Positions 3,001 through 9,000 of a DNA stretch of 64,000 bases are shown piece after piece. How positions within the stretch are numbered: the first letter of the stretch is position 1; each line of letters starts with the position of its first letter. The DNA comes from Escherichia coli (lineage in GTDB: Bacteria; Pseudomonadota; Gammaproteobacteria; Enterobacterales; Enterobacteriaceae), in assembly GCF_029227855.1 (NCBI RefSeq), contig NZ_CP074357.1. One strand, 5' to 3'. The position numbers were made by a program.

Positions 3001-6000
3001 ACCCGGATTGGACAAAGAATTTTGAAGAAGAGAAAATAAAATTGCTCCATTTTTTCGGTTCTCATGCCGTAGCCATTGAACATATCGGAAGCACGGCGAT
3101 ACCCAATCAACGGGCGAAACCGGTTATAGATATATTTATTGGCGTTTCGCCTTTTGCTGAACTACCTTTTATCAGCGCATTTTTAATGCAAAGGAGTATC
3201 ACCACACTCCGACAGATATGACAGGCAGATATTTGTTTGCAAAATATACAAATGAAGTTTGGACCCATAATCTTCTTGCTTTGGTGTAGGTATAATACCC
3301 AAAAACGAAGTTTATGCGGAACAGGATAACACCTCGAAATCGGAGTTTATATGGCTTCGTGGGGGAGTTATGTGTTTGAGCTTTGTCGCATTAACGCGAA
3401 TCAGGGGTTGACGGCAGAAATAGACTGGAATTACACTTCTTGGAGTCGGCGTTGCCGGAAAATTCTGATTGGATTAGTTGTTCGGGGTGCGAAAACAGTC
3501 GTAGTTCGGGGAAAAAACCGAATTTTGACCCAAAACCGCGAAAAACTCGAAATGACAGTTCCTATCAGTTTTCATAATGAATTAAAACAAAAAAATTAGG
3601 CTGCAAAGATAGGGAAAATGTGTCAATTTGCGTAAGTGATAATTAGTCAATTAAGATAAATGCTACTTTTGTAATCAAAGCAAAATGATATGAGCAAGAT
3701 TTTTGGAATCGTAAATATAACCACCGATAGTTTTTCCGATGGAGGACTTTATTTAGATACAGATAAGGCAATTGAGCATGCTCTGCATTTGGTTGAAGAT
3801 GGAGCAGATGTGATTGATTTGGGAGCCGCTTCCAGTAATCCTGATACAACTGAAGTGGGCGTTGTGGAAGAAATCAAAAGACTCAAACCTGTCATTAAGG
3901 CTTTAAAAGAAAAAGGCATTTCTATTTCTGTTGATACATTTAAACCTGAGGTTCAGAGTTTTTGCATAGAACAAAAGGTTGATTTTATTAATGATATTCA
4001 AGGTTTTCCTTATCCTGAGATTTATTCAGGCTTGGCAAAGTCAGATTGCAAACTTGTGTTGATGCACTCCGTTCAGCGAATTGGTGCAGCTACTAAAGTT
4101 GAAACGAATCCGGAAGAGGTTTTTACTTCCATGATGGAATTTTTTAAAGAAAGAATTGCTGCTTTAGTTGAGGCTGGTGTAAAGCGTGAACGAATTATTC
4201 TTGATCCGGGTATGGGCTTCTTTTTAGGCTCTAATCCAGAAACATCTATTCTTGTTTTGAAGCGTTTCCCTGAAATTCAAGAAGCTTTTAATTTGCAAGT
4301 AATGATTGCAGTGTCACGGAAATCATTCTTAGGTAAAATAACTGGAACCGATGTGAAATCTCGTTTAGCACCAACTCTTGCAGCAGAAATGTATGCATAC
4401 AAAAAAGGTGCAGATTATCTCCGCACCCATGATGTTAAGTCTTTATCAGATGCCTTGAAAATATCCAAAGCCCTAGGTTAGTTTTATTTTTTTAGCTTTC
4501 TAAATGAATATGCTATACTTGCTCTGAAGTTGTGTTGGCGTACTTGACTTAGGTCTGGATCTTTCGAACTGTTACTAAGAGGGTAATCATAGCCAAACAT
4601 AAACTGGAAATGTCCTAATTCTAAACCTGTTCCAATACCTACACTATGGTGATGCTGCCAACTTACTGATTTAGTGTATGATGGTGTTTTTGAGGTGCTC
4701 CAGTGGCTTCTGTTTCTATCAGCTGTCCCTCCTGTTCAGCTACTGACGGGGTGGTGCGTAACGGCAAAAGCACCGCCGGACATCAGCGCTATCTCTGCTC
4801 TCACTGCCGTAAAACATGGCAACTGCAGTTCACTTACACCGCTTCTCAACCCGGTACGCACCAGAAAATCATTGATATGGCCATGAATGGCGTTGGATGC
4901 CGGGCAACCGCCCGCATTATGGGCGTTGGCCTCAACACGATTTTCCGCCATTTAAAAAACTCAGGCCGCAGTCGGTAACCTCGCGCATACAGCCGGGCAG
5001 TGACGTCATCGTCTGCGCGGAAATGGACGAACAGTGGGGATACGTCGGGGCTAAATCGCGCCAGCGCTGGCTGTTTTACGCGTATGACAGGCTCCGGAAG
5101 ACGGTTGTTGCGCACGTATTCGGTGAACGCACTATGGCGACGCTGGGGCGTCTTATGAGCCTGCTGTCACCCTTTGACGTGGTGATATGGATGACGGATG
5201 GCTGGCCGCTGTATGAATCCCGCCTGAAGGGAAAGCTGCACGTAATCAGCAAGCGATATACGCAGCGAATTGAGCGGCATAACCTGAATCTGAGGCAGCA
5301 CCTGGCACGGCTGGGACGGAAGTCGCTGTCGTTCTCAAAATCGGTGGAGCTGCATGACAAAGTCATCGGGCATTATCTGAACATAAAACACTATCAATAA
5401 GTTGGAGTCATTACCGGAGAATTGTATCATTAACAGTCTAGTTCTAACGACTACCACTTTTAAGTATGTATTGAGCCAGTTTTATATTCAGGCACACCAT
5501 ATTGCACTCTAGCTCTTTCATCATTCTTGAAGAACTCTTAATTAAGTATTCTTCAAGTGGGCCAGCATATGCCCCTGATGTCACGATCGTTAGTTGCGTA
5601 AGAGGATGAGTCAAACTCTCAATGCCCTTCAGGATGTCATTCTGGACAGCAGCAATATAAACAGGCGAAGCCGCAATCAAATATTCATCATTCGGGCTGG
5701 ACTGCATTAACTGGCTTATAGTTGCGCAACGGTTATGCTTACCTAGTGATTTTGTGATGGCTTTCCACCAGAGATCATGCCTGAATGGTACTTGATGAAA
5801 TGTCGCCTCGTAAGAGGGCACCCGATCTCGACTATTTAAAAACCCCATCCCGGCAGAGATTATCCACAACTCCAGATTTCTGGTTGAGTTTAAAATTTCC
5901 TTTGCCGTAGACCAGTGATTACCTGAATACAAGGACAATGCCGGTACCGCCTGATTACTTCTGGCGTCGTCTACAATGTTACTCCAGGCATATGCTGCGT

Positions 6001-9000
6001 CGTCCGGGGTTTGTTTTGGATCTATGTCCAATGTCGGCCAGACGTGGCCCTGATGATTCTTGCCCTTTGTACAGGAAGTGATTAAGTGTACTGAGCGTTC
6101 AGAGAACATTATCTTCCTTACATACCCATAGAACAGCTTTCTAAGAACGGTGGGCTCGCCTGAAAATTACAAATCAGCCCCTTTCACGGCATCATTTTGA
6201 TTCTTCGCGTCTGCCCCCAGTAAGATGACCGGTTTTCTGCATGACAGTGTTATTCCTAACAAACGCAACACAAAACCACGCCAGCCAGAGCAAATTTTTT
6301 CATTTGCTGCGTAAAGCCTATTGTTTTCTCTTTTAAGCTTCGCCCACTCGTTACAGAGGGTAACATCATCAAGCGCTGTTATATGCTTCGCCTCACCTTC
6401 GACGATAACGGTATGGATACCGTATGCTGTAAATCTCATACTATTTTCCAGAACCCAGTTGCGGTATTCGTCGAGTCCACCTTCGGAACCGGTAGCTCTG
6501 CGCCACATTTCAATTTGCTTGTGTGATGGGTCAAGTGTACTTGTCATTGAAGCCTCGTCTCAGCGATAACGCTTGAAATAGCCCGCTTTGGTCATCATGA
6601 AATTAGCCATCTGACTGGCGATTTGATTGTATCTTACTCATAGTGCCCTACCTATAGGTTAAAAAGGGGCATTTTCGCTTTATAGCGTGTTCAGCAGCAT
6701 CAATCCTCCCAAGAAAGGCTGGCTTATTAAGCCGGTCCATCATTTTCTGTATATCTCTCATCAATTTTTATATCCGCCCTGGAGTGCACCGTTCAAGCAC
6801 ACCGATTAGGCAGATAGTCACTAGTTAACTCTTTACTAGTGACTAAATTCCATTGATATACGTGACAACGTCACGTCATGAAAGCTTATAAATGCCTATT
6901 TTTCATACAATGGGATTTAATTAGGAGTAAATCCCATAGGCTTACATAAGGATGACAATTAAAAGCGTTAAATATCAACCAGATAGAATGATTACCCCCA
7001 ATTAATGGGCTCATCACATTATTTCACTGGCTGGGGTTATTGCTGGCATATCTGAAAGTGCTAATATGTTAGTCATTAGTAATTAGTAAAGCCTTTACTA
7101 AACGCGTTTCTACGTAAATTCTATAGGTTTTATAGTGTCCTACCTTTGCTCAAATCAAAATGTTCTGACATACCAAAATGGAGTGTAAAATGACTCAAAA
7201 CCAGGGTTCTGAGCCAGTACCGGCGAGCCGGACAGGGCAGCTCATCAGCGCCCGGGATATGGCCATGCAGAAATTCGAAGAAGGGATGCGGTTAATCTCG
7301 GAAGCGTCGGAACTGTGCGGTCTCTCTCTCTTCACCAGCAGAATTATGCAGCCCAACGCATTTGGTCTTCCGTCGTCACTGGATCGCACCATCGAGGAGG
7401 GGCGTAAGGAAATTGACCGTAAAACGTGGAAAAGGCTCTTTGAAGAAACAGGTATGGACCGGTACTGGAACCATAAGCAAAAAGAAGCCTTTAACGAATC
7501 CCTTCGTACGGATCCGCCCGTCGCTTCCCTGGAGATTGTTAAGGGAACATTACAGCATGCACTGGCTAACAGACGAGACACCCTTGCAGAAGGTTTCGTT
7601 GATGTTCTCAACAAGCTTGACCGAAGTTTCAAAAGCAATGCCAGGCAATATACAATGCCAAAAAAGCTTGTTCTTCGGGGGATTTTTCCTGGTGTGAACG
7701 TGCTGAGGTACAACGGTTTCTCGCAGGACAATCACTTTTGTTTACGCGACTTTGAGAATATTGTATGCATCTGTTCTGATACTCCAACACCTGCAACCGG
7801 CGGTGGGCTGAGTATGGTCGACAGGCTGACGGCCATGAGAAATACAGAATTCACAGGCGAGGTCAGTGATGAGAATGGCTGGCGGTGTCGCCTGTTTGAG
7901 AATGGAAACGTTCATATTTGCATCGACAGTATCTCGCTTCTGAATGCTCTGAACGATCTTATCAGCATATATTTTGCAAACCAGCTTCCGGCCGCAGGAA
8001 AAAAATGATGATTGAAAATGATAAAGAAAAAAGCCTGAACGATGCTACCCCGCCAGAGGTGCAGAATGACATCCGCAGCGAATCCACTGAAAAATCAAAG
8101 GAAATGGGTCGTTCAAGGTACTCATCTATCGCGATGATCGATTACTTCAATGCAATCGAACGTCTGTGCAAAGAGAAAGAAATTAACCCGGAAAATATCG
8201 ATCTGAGCTTCAAAGTTCACTGGCTCAGAAACGCTGTTGGCGGCTCGTTTGCAAGGTCACAGGAGATGTTCGCGGAGTACCAGAAGTATGTTAAAGAGGT
8301 TCCTGAAGAGGCCCGTTACCTGGATATACCCGATGAGGTAAAGGTTGCACTCGGCGATATTATCTCGTACATCACCTGGCACTACCGTAGAAGCTATACC
8401 GCAATACAGAATGATAGTGTTAAAAAAGCTGAAGCACGTAGCATGCAGCTGGAGGAGGAGGTAACGCAGCTGTTACAGCGGCTTGAGCAAAGCGCTACCG
8501 ATATGGATGAGCTGAAACTTGAGAATCAGGCACTACAGGGTCGATTAGAGATCCGGGACAGTACCGTCAAGGAGTTAGAAACAAGGCTGAATGTTGCCGA
8601 AGCAGAACTCGAAACCTGCCATCACCAGTTAGATAGCACACGGCATGAATTGAGCCTCGCACAGCAGTCAAATGACTCACTCTCCCAGCAACTGGCTGAA
8701 CGTAAAACAGAGATCGCTGGTCACCTTGAATATCAAAAAAAGCTGAACGAAGAGATCAACACGCAGCGTTCTGATAACGCCGGTCTTTCCAGACAATGCG
8801 ACCAGTTAAGTCAGACTGTGTCAGATACAAAGGCAGAGAGGGACAGGTTTGAACAGGAATTGATTGCTGCACAGAACCTTTGTACTGAGCTGAAAAGTGC
8901 ACTGTCCGGGAAAGAGGGTGACCTGGTGGCGGTGAATGCCGAGCTTACTGAACTCCATAAACTAAACGAGTCGCTGAGCGCCGACCTGAATAAAGTAACT

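Follow-up and report, generated by a model that had tools for sequence, protein, structure and literature searches.

A predicted short, orphan DpdC-like protein encoded in a truncated operon of the IncHI2 plasmid backbone

DpdC is the enzyme that finishes the 7-deazaguanine marking of DNA, and YaaA, of the DUF328 family (PF03883), is a peroxide-stress DNA-binding protein of E. coli. IncHI2 plasmids are among the main vehicles of multidrug resistance in E. coli, Salmonella and Enterobacter. Only for the DpdC of S. Montevideo has the conversion of dPreQ0 to dADG in DNA been established, and in vitro DpdC needs neither DpdA nor DpdB to act on preQ0-modified DNA (PMC10164549). CxxxK and LSAxxG are the signature motifs of the DUF6884 family (PF21818); a member of this family, B. 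subtilis YfjM, as well as YaaA, has been linked to DNA damage and not to deazaguanine (PMC11701544). We found nothing in the literature on orphan or plasmid homologues of DpdC. Here we analyze two genes, orfA and orfB, in a stretch of 64,000 nucleotides of Escherichia coli DNA (contig NZ_CP074357.1), which is referred to throughout as the window. Its relevant features are:

4648..5415, plus strand: IS1 of 768 bp, the left boundary; its InsA and InsB ORFs match NCBIfam transpos_IS1
5416..5443, minus strand: 28 bp, the rest of the spacer 3' of orfB; point of the operon break, from comparison of the window with the backbone L003
6109..5444, minus strand: orfB, 221 aa, ATG start; short-form orphan DpdC-like protein, DUF6884, YaaA-like fold; putative active-site motifs C13xxxK17 and I84-S-A-G-M-G89
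6110..6166, minus strand: orfA-orfB spacer of 57 bp, carrying the orfB ribosome-binding site AAGGAAG as read from the sequence
6547..6167, minus strand: orfA, 126 aa, ATG start; first gene of the apparent operon
6548..7189, no strand: divergent intergenic and regulatory region of 642 bp, between orfA and the DUF4942 gene
7190-8008, plus strand: DUF4942 gene (Pfam DUF4942, E 2.8e-26)
8005-9210, plus strand: gene for a 401-aa coiled-coil protein, transcribed divergently from orfA and orfB
12702..13217, plus strand: thermonuclease (SNase) with a signal peptide (Pfam SNase, E 3.8e-24)
47825..48109, plus strand: displaced distal end of the operon, an hns remnant (residues 41-134), 5'-truncated beside IS26 and in inverted orientation with respect to orfA and orfB

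An earlier note on this DNA had described two co-oriented genes of 126 and 221 aa with a 57-bp gap, lying where a sul3/IS1 resistance module meets the plasmid backbone. Both genes were recovered at those coordinates, on the minus strand, which the note had left unstated, and the module is represented by the IS1 copy and a gene at 3690-4481 that matches Sul3 with 613 bits. Shine-Dalgarno-like sequences are read about 6 nt before the orfA ATG (GAGG) and 5 nt before that of orfB (AAGGAAG). As the orfB stop codon occupies 5444-5446 and IS1 ends at 5415, 28 bp lie between them. A 1.76-kb segment of the locus is present in 1174 plasmid records, at full length in 781 of these, and among 5426 complete E. 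coli genomes 245 have it. Judging from this count of plasmid records, a match to DpdC profiles and the pN/pS values given below, orfA and orfB are not chance ORFs. Neither are they unannotated, as had been supposed, since 'hypothetical protein' is the RefSeq label of both in hundreds of plasmids; the literature held nothing on their expression in IncHI2.

The absence of any recognizable motif, noted earlier for both products, holds for orfA, which has no family in HMM searches, but not for orfB. The latter matches the PADLOC DpdC model PDLC02818 with 198 bits (E 4.1e-59) and six further PADLOC DpdC models with E of 1e-14 to 1e-20. It shares both motifs of DUF6884, namely C13-T-K-G-K17 (CxxxK) and I84-S-A-G-M-G89 ([L/I]SAxxG), but its score against that Pfam family is marginal, 30.4 bits where the gathering threshold is 30 (E 5e-7, residues 50-175), and it resembles the DpdC subfamily far more than the average of the family; PF21818 is precomputed on most of its homologues. 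Across the aligned short and long forms C13, K17, W42, Y61, H65, W66, S85, A86, G87, G89, Y100 and F104 are invariant, the two signature motifs being included among these residues, and C13, K17, S85, A86, G87 and G89 are so in 20 family members of both forms; the positions that do not vary between orfB and DpdC comprise the two motifs and about 20 further residues. Profile searches recovered 1608 relatives of orfB, and most among the 150 listed are of about 310-325 aa. Two long relatives that were examined sit in dpdC-dpdA(TGT)-dpdB(DndB)-SNF2 islands, and the island DpdC P0057, encoded beside TGT/DpdA and DndB/DpdB, is 38% identical to orfB over residues 6-217 (BLASTP, E 9e-45). Neighbour-joining places the short clade with the sampled long DpdCs, among them the two that are island-confirmed. 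Homologues from IncHI1-like plasmids (58% identity) and IncFII-like plasmids (35-42% identity) retain the length of 221 aa and all motif residues, and pN/pS for orfB is 0.07-0.29 (0.16 against L014, a diverged IncHI2 relative). These relationships identify orfB, at the level of sequence, as a variant DpdC belonging to a short plasmid clade, rather than a standard DpdC.

The differences from the standard enzyme are considerable. DpdC of the S. Montevideo type has about 318 aa (full-length forms have about 305-325 aa), and only its N-terminal catalytic domain of about 230 residues is homologous to orfB, which ends at profile position 233 of 319 and so lacks the C-terminal domain of about 85 aa with the motif ISATxxLRxFRxxGxSFEExRF. 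Also missing is a 12-14-aa loop that DpdC has after 'ATF', and orfB reads YEATF where DpdC has Y[Q/K/S/D]ATF. Because of the absent domain and loop and the YEATF change, substrate or DNA recognition may differ. A split DpdC, with the missing domain encoded by the downstream 151-aa or 98-aa ORF of relatives, was considered and rejected, as an HMM of the C-terminal domain had no match in six-frame translations of the window and of the downstream regions of relatives. Furthermore, unlike island DpdCs, orfB lies on a plasmid, with hns and DUF4942 as linked genes, and is not beside dpdA, dpdB or dpdD-K. A tblastn search with DpdA against 72,556 plasmids returned 27 records, none of them among the approximately 1170 IncHI2 records, and a hidden dpdA or dpdB is likewise rejected, since the IncHI loci examined contain neither a TGT nor a DndB gene. 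With no dpdA on IncHI2, and dpd islands of this type in only about 3% of complete E. coli genomes (161 of 5426), the dPreQ0 substrate is expected to be usually absent.

The closest solved fold to orfB is that of YaaA (PDB 5CAJ), with which it shares the 'cantaloupe' alpha/beta fold at 13% identity, a likeness at the fold level only; orfB had no match to PF03883, nor the orfB-family profile to PDB sequences, at E up to 1. This fold raises the alternative that orfB, like YaaA or YfjM, binds DNA in a general response to lesions or oxidative stress and is unrelated to 7-deazaguanine; it would then protect or repair plasmid DNA, for example the single-stranded DNA in conjugative transfer. Consistent with it, Pfam curators tie YfjM to abasic and ribonucleotide lesions (PMC11701544), DpdA and DpdB are lacking, and the DpdC-specific C-terminal domain and loop are missing. 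Nevertheless, we regard it as unlikely, given the disparity between the PADLOC DpdC and DUF6884 scores, the lack of a PF03883/YaaA match, the identity to an island DpdC and the grouping of the short clade with long DpdCs.

Instead, the account that we consider reasonably probable is that of a truncated IncHI operon in which orfB encodes an orphan DpdC-like Cys/Lys DNA-base processor, possibly a dPreQ0-to-dADG hydratase. On this account, orfB would bind DNA through its YaaA-like fold and place a flipped-out base in a pocket around Cys13/Lys17 and Ser85-Ala-Gly-x-Gly89. The most likely chemistry, judged from the homology to DpdC, would be a Cys-dependent hydration, with Cys13 as the predicted catalytic residue, converting the nitrile of dPreQ0 (7-cyano-7-deazaguanine) to the amide of dADG. 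Since the plasmid has no DpdA, a DpdA of the host or of a phage would need to supply the substrate in trans. Like the orphan methyltransferases and other stealth genes, orfB is of a modification type without a cognate restriction partner and lies in a plasmid backbone, although its chemistry and fold differ from those of orphan methyltransferases and plasmid H-NS. We infer a role in plasmid protection. In the backbone orfB is placed among further self-marking or 'stealth' genes (orphan C5 methyltransferase, DUF4942 and hns), a setting that fits a part in the marking or perception of plasmid DNA.

The two genes had been taken together as a unit, a description that proves incomplete. In the intact IncHI2 backbones L002, L003 and L014, orfA and orfB are followed by genes for 151, 78 and 97 aa and then by hns, all on one strand, and IncHI1-like plasmids have the order DUF6884-98aa-hns; Pfam and PADLOC give no family for the 151-aa and 98-aa ORFs. 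Thus, orfA and orfB appear to be the promoter-proximal genes of a conserved IncHI backbone operon, co-transcription being suggested by this arrangement. Comparison with L003 reveals that 1.4 kb of the operon is deleted in the window and that L003 5344-6618 corresponds to window 49099-47825 with 100% identity; over positions 41-134, the translation of the hns remnant found there fits the StpA and H-NS models of NCBIfam. The IS1/IS26-bounded resistance region has cut the operon 28 bp after orfB, and plasmid matches begin at query position 2, which corresponds to window position 5416. With an 80-bp junction query, and records counted at 80% coverage or more, the exact IS1/backbone junction is common to at least 190 plasmid records.

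The orfA-orfB spacer has 0 differences in 57 positions from L002. As a pair, the two genes are not conserved. A search for orfA homologues returned only near-identical IncHI2 copies, all at least 68-76% identical, and no significant match was found in Pfam, NCBIfam, PADLOC or PHROGs (DUF6889 at E 0.14). The gene is absent upstream of the DUF6884 gene in the IncHI1-like L004-L006, where tblastn gives no match, and from L007, L017, L018 and L020, and in L016, an E. ludwigii plasmid, it is reduced to a frameshifted remnant of residues 51-126. Because orfA is not conserved with orfB across the relatives, a two-gene toxin-antitoxin system or obligate pair is rejected. Against L014, orfA has 12 synonymous and 15 non-synonymous changes (pN/pS 0.35), many frameshifted variants exist in databases, and its AF2 model has an unusable pLDDT of 58. 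From its distribution and variation, orfA is best regarded as an IncHI2-restricted accessory ORFan, weakly constrained and dispensable in relatives. These properties, along with the truncation of the operon in many plasmids with no apparent loss of plasmid success, would fit a reading of the pair as inert cargo, with orfB a decaying dpd-island relic and orfA a spurious or young ORF. We hold this to be highly improbable, as orfB is under purifying selection and, unlike pseudogenes, has kept its length and motifs at the identities given above, while even orfA shows a synonymous excess (12 of 27 changes, against about 6 expected under neutrality). Separately, at least 190 plasmids have lost the downstream half of the gene cluster, a tolerance that counts against the orphan base-processor account.

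On the other side of orfA, the palindrome-rich character previously ascribed to the divergent region is evident. An inverted-repeat search located palindromes at 6815-6845 (14-nt arms, 93% complementary) and 6910-6937 (10-nt perfect arms), and a third, at 6860-6876, reads ACGTGAC-AAC-GTCACGT, its core being invariant in an alignment of four lineages. The same four-lineage alignment has a conserved 160-bp block at 6603-6762, and an AT-rich repeat lies at 7069-7101. Relative to L002 the region has 54 differences in 630 positions, whereas the flanking genes are nearly identical. Within these 642 bp a consensus scan found no sigma-70 consensus promoter, and no convincing -35/-10 pair was seen by eye. 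Rfam searches gave no credible family; the sole match, Hammerhead_HH9, is sub-threshold (22 vs 52 bits) and was taken as chance, and a structured RNA was rejected. Beyond the region, synteny of the DUF4942 and coiled-coil genes, both transcribed divergently from orfA and orfB, with the DUF6884 gene is seen in IncHI2 as well as IncHI1-like plasmids, and a neighbouring C5 cytosine methyltransferase fits an orphan-methyltransferase model (E 3e-206).

In three other plasmid lineages the short form is held in a tight X(wHTH)-DUF6884-SNase operon, in which X, a wHTH protein of about 400 aa, is encoded upstream; BLAST finds no homology of X to the IncHI2 neighbours, and such a relationship was discarded. 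In L007, L017 and L020 the SNase is directly downstream of the short DUF6884 gene, and the SNase of the window is 37-46% identical to theirs. These operons, together with the homology to DpdC with its conserved Cys/Lys site, a weak match to the PADLOC candidate PDC-M57A (E 2.4e-5), the adjoining orphan methyltransferase and hns, and the occurrence of Dpd islands in E. coli, can be read as pointing to a factor that acts against deazaguanine systems in defence or counter-defence. Such a factor might recognize or alter dPreQ0-modified phage DNA, drain free preQ0 and thereby keep phage or host DpdA from modifying DNA, or, on entry of the plasmid into a Dpd+ host, interfere with Dpd restriction. 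This proposal, however, is entirely inferential and appears rather improbable to us: on IncHI plasmids orfB and the SNase gene are 6.5 kb apart, and every linked SNase has an N-terminal signal peptide, so that these SNases are probably exported, joint action on cytoplasmic DNA is unlikely, and their role as intracellular nuclease partners was rejected.

A broader and quite speculative extension, to which we give little credence at present, is that the short orphan DpdC-like clade would constitute a previously unrecognized class of plasmid-borne enzymes that act on 7-cyano-7-deazaguanine which others provide, a clade spanning the backbones of IncHI1 and IncHI2 as well as the X-DUF6884-SNase operons found on IncFII-like plasmids. 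Its members could possibly finish dADG marks as plasmid 'self' in Dpd+ hosts, alter or sense dPreQ0 phage DNA, or destroy the pool of free preQ0 on which phage DpdA enzymes depend.

In summary, a 'hypothetical' gene of the IncHI2 backbone proves to encode a trimmed relative of DpdC, without DpdA or DpdB and apparently in one operon with hns. A recurrent IS1/IS26-mediated deletion that removed three genes and inactivated the plasmid hns is also documented. Should orfB be inactive on dPreQ0, the annotation would still be useful and the operon structure is corrected. If active, it would be a compact, partner-independent enzyme for DpdC chemistry, and would link conjugative plasmids to deazaguanine restriction-modification or to phage DNA hypermodification. 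Were any version of the enzyme-class proposal true, globally important MDR plasmids would carry a module for counter-defence or defence that is bound up with DNA epigenetics based on deazaguanine.

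Both co-oriented genes that the earlier note had placed beside IS1 were found on the minus strand, separated by a 57-bp spacer, with 28 bp between the IS1 end and the stop codon of orfB. From reading the sequence, each has a Shine-Dalgarno-like element at a suitable distance:

3690-4481: sul3 (Sul3 model, 613 bits), beyond IS1 as seen from orfB
4648-5415: complete IS1 of 768 bp, both ORFs matching NCBIfam transpos_IS1
6109..5444, minus strand: orfB, 221 aa, preceded by AAGGAAG
6547..6167, minus strand: orfA, 126 aa, preceded by GAGG

That neither gene would carry a recognisable motif holds for orfA, for which no family was detected with Pfam, NCBIfam, PADLOC or PHROGs, but not for orfB. 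The latter matches Pfam DUF6884 just over the threshold (30.4 bits against 30) and the PADLOC DpdC model PDLC02818 at E 4e-59, albeit covering only profile positions 3-233 of 319. A profile from orfB relatives, searched against 1.84 billion representative proteins, retrieved 1608 proteins, and among the 150 listed most are ~310-325 aa long. One of them (P0057, 318 aa) is encoded in an integrase-flanked island with the order dpdC, TGT-like dpdA, DndB-like dpdB, SNF2 helicase and DEAD helicase, and another (P0060, 319 aa) on a short contig immediately upstream of dpdA and dpdB; both are authentic DpdC genes. Such P0057-type islands for 7-deazaguanine DNA modification lie on the chromosome in 161 out of 5426 complete E. 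coli genomes. Across residues 6-217 OrfB shares 38% identity with P0057, and it carries at C13-K17 and I84-G89 both signature motifs given for DUF6884 by the Pfam curators, CxxxK and LSAxxG (PMC11701544). Both motifs, together with W42, Y61, H65, W66, Y100 and F104, are invariant in an alignment of 9 short and 11 long family members. Comparisons with three relatives gave pN/pS values of 0.07, 0.16 and 0.29, pointing to purifying selection. We are highly confident that orfB encodes a bona fide short-clade DpdC/DUF6884 protein.

The unit was not unannotated as first thought, both genes being already listed by RefSeq, and they are annotated everywhere as 'hypothetical protein'. RefSeq names dpdA and dpdB in the P0057 island and in E. 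coli chromosomal dpd islands (match rows H101-H108) while leaving dpdC a 'hypothetical protein', and NCBIfam release 20 has no model matching an island DpdC; hence the plasmid homologue has remained unnamed. The profile search also recovered a natural fusion (P0137, 776 aa), whose N-terminal half is a full DpdC-like region that extends to the C-terminal DpdC motif; the ~450-aa domain after it is probably DpdA/TGT-like, judging by its position and length.

In a neighbour-joining tree orfB groups with its closest relatives in a short clade, whose members are 211-245 aa long. DpdC proteins differ by two segments, a loop of 12-14 residues that follows the YxATF motif and an ~85-residue C-terminal domain with the motif ISATxxLRxFRxxGxSFEExRF, the first missing and the second wholly missing from the short clade, which also has Glu (YEATF) at the position taken by Gln, Lys, Ser or Asp in the DpdCs. 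Provision of the C-terminal domain by a separate gene was ruled out, as its HMM was silent in six-frame translations of the window and of the relatives' downstream regions. No TGT or DndB gene was found in any short-clade locus examined, and tblastn with DpdA against PLSDB recovered only 27 plasmids, none of them IncHI2. The short clade is thus an orphan, existing without DpdA and DpdB, in the following settings:

IncHI1-like plasmids (59% identity): DUF4942 and coiled-coil genes, divergent from DUF6884 - 98 aa - hns
divergent E. ludwigii plasmid (90% identity): the same gene frame as in the IncHI1-like plasmids
three short-clade loci, two with IncFII-type repA: tight overlapping operon X - DUF6884 - SNase, X being ~400 aa with a wHTH-like N-terminus
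one metagenomic lineage: DUF6884 gene alone

The overlapping operons lie at L007 6787-9172, L017 3-1886 and L020 2-2332 (IncFII-type repA in L007 and L020), and their X protein is uncharacterised, ~370-405 aa long, with a winged-helix-like N-terminus. IncHI2 plasmids have an SNase homologue at 12702-13217, 6.5 kb from orfB and 37-46% identical to the SNases of these operons. All these SNases bear signal peptides, which disfavours a joint cytoplasmic mechanism with the DUF6884 protein. While the DpdC/DUF6884 family and its fold, like the RefSeq listing as hypothetical proteins, are already known, a plasmid-borne, C-terminally shortened DpdC clade without DpdA or DpdB appears to be new in the literature searched. 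This clade, apparently undescribed, is conserved across IncHI1, IncHI2 and IncFII-like plasmids, upstream of plasmid hns.

The structure prediction of orfA was unusable (pLDDT 58), and its relatives are all at least 68-76% identical, many being frameshifted or truncated. Against L014, a diverged intact IncHI2 backbone, 12 of its changes are synonymous and 15 non-synonymous, with a pN/pS of 0.35 versus 0.16 for orfB and 0.12 for the DUF4942 gene; orfA is constrained beyond neutral expectation, yet clearly more weakly than these two. It is absent from IncHI1-like plasmids, and the E. ludwigii plasmid (L016) retains a frameshifted remnant of residues 51-126 only. Neighbourhood conservation, which had been proposed as a check, was seen for orfB, kept with the DUF4942, coiled-coil and hns genes in IncHI1-like relatives, and not for orfA, lost or decayed in relatives. 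A toxin-antitoxin or obligate pair was rejected on the same absence and decay. OrfA is probably a real but young, dispensable IncHI2-specific gene. With orfB under purifying selection, it is highly improbable that the pair is mere inert cargo.

The earlier reading of a two-gene operon stands as to the adjacent, co-oriented genes, but they do not form a complete unit. In insertion-free IncHI2 plasmids (L002, L003, L014) orfB is followed on the same strand, across short gaps, by genes of 151, 78 or 101, and 97 aa and finally by an H-NS-family gene. Relative to L003, the backbone restarts in the window at 5416; L003 6619-7994, which spans all three small genes and the initial 120 nt of hns, is missing, and the remainder of that arm lies inverted elsewhere:

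47825-48109: hns remnant, H-NS/StpA-like in translation (residues 41-134) and abutting IS26
47825-49099: remainder of the backbone arm, inverted

This second arm (47825-49099 and 49864-50824) is ~42 kb away. Its hns has lost the first 40 codons and lies directly against a copy of IS26, so that this plasmid's own H-NS is inactivated. Precisely this junction between IS1 and backbone is found in 190 or more plasmid records, and its carriers therefore constitute a successful sublineage. We are confident of this IS1-cut operon of orfA, orfB, three small genes and hns; its co-transcription from orfA through hns we infer from gene arrangement.

Upstream of orfA, the palindromes described in the earlier note were located in a 642-bp AT-rich intergenic region (38% GC against 50% for the window):

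6815-6845: palindrome with 14-nt arms
6860-6876: palindrome ACGTGAC-AAC-GTCACGT, core invariant in four diverged lineages
6910-6937: palindrome with perfect 10-nt arms
7190-8008: DUF4942 gene, on the far side of the region and divergent from orfA; a 401-aa coiled-coil gene comes next

A consensus scan of this region found no sigma-70 promoter, and Rfam gave only a sub-threshold match to Hammerhead_HH9 (22.1 bits, the gathering score being 52; E 0.019; 7203-7267, minus strand, inside the DUF4942 coding region), almost certainly by chance. Between two IncHI2 sublineages, 54 of 630 intergenic positions differ (8.6%; 6548-7177 versus L002 9133-9762), as against only 1/381, 5/666 and 11/819 in the flanking genes; the region has the look of a regulatory stretch that either recombined or evolves fast. 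Within it, a 160-bp block (6603-6762) is highly conserved even in L016, despite the decay of orfA there. Two tiny ORFs lie in it on the minus strand, one of 16 aa (MANFMMTKAGYFKRYR) and the other of ~31 aa, along with a GC-rich hairpin (6717-6737); the block might serve as a 5' leader or an operator.

A 1.76-kb segment of the locus matched 1174 plasmid records, 781 at full length, the carriers being large (~200-330 kb) conjugative IncHI2/IncHI2A plasmids of Escherichia, Salmonella, Enterobacter and Klebsiella; among 5426 complete E. coli genomes, 245 have it, nearly always on a plasmid. Given this spread, orfA and orfB are IncHI2 backbone genes outside the sul3 module. Several IncHI2 plasmids have an IS5-family element (ISKpn26 in PLSDB records) inside the 1.8-kb segment (match rows H48, H49, H51, H52, H63; H109), and other records break off at query positions 508, 1030, 1315, 1335 and ~1727; the locus is a recurrent insertion or recombination target.

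Published descriptions of YaaA and DUF6884 proteins have them bind DNA and possess a basic cleft, their conserved motifs forming a predicted base-flipping pocket (PMC11701544). A YaaA/YfjM-like DNA-damage role is unlikely for orfB. Since orfB retains every family-shared residue, we infer an active enzyme, which would bind DNA and flip a base into a Cys13/Lys17 pocket. By homology, its chemistry may be hydration of the nitrile of dPreQ0 (7-cyano-7-deazaguanine in DNA) to the amide, with dPreQ0 supplied by a host or phage DpdA; this substrate is a tentative assignment. Dedicated defence or counter-defence against deazaguanine systems, which overlaps with such an activity, is still less likely. 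As a whole, the account combining a short-clade DpdC/DUF6884 protein, a truncated operon and a dPreQ0 substrate is the one we favour, with moderate confidence. A C5 cytosine DNA methyltransferase (11060-12529, minus strand; PADLOC orphan-methyltransferase model oMTase, E 3e-206) has no adjoining restriction gene that we could see, with DUF1173 and DUF4942 genes nearby. The company of this orphan methyltransferase, the DUF4942 gene and plasmid hns suggests a role for orfB in the marking or perception of plasmid DNA.
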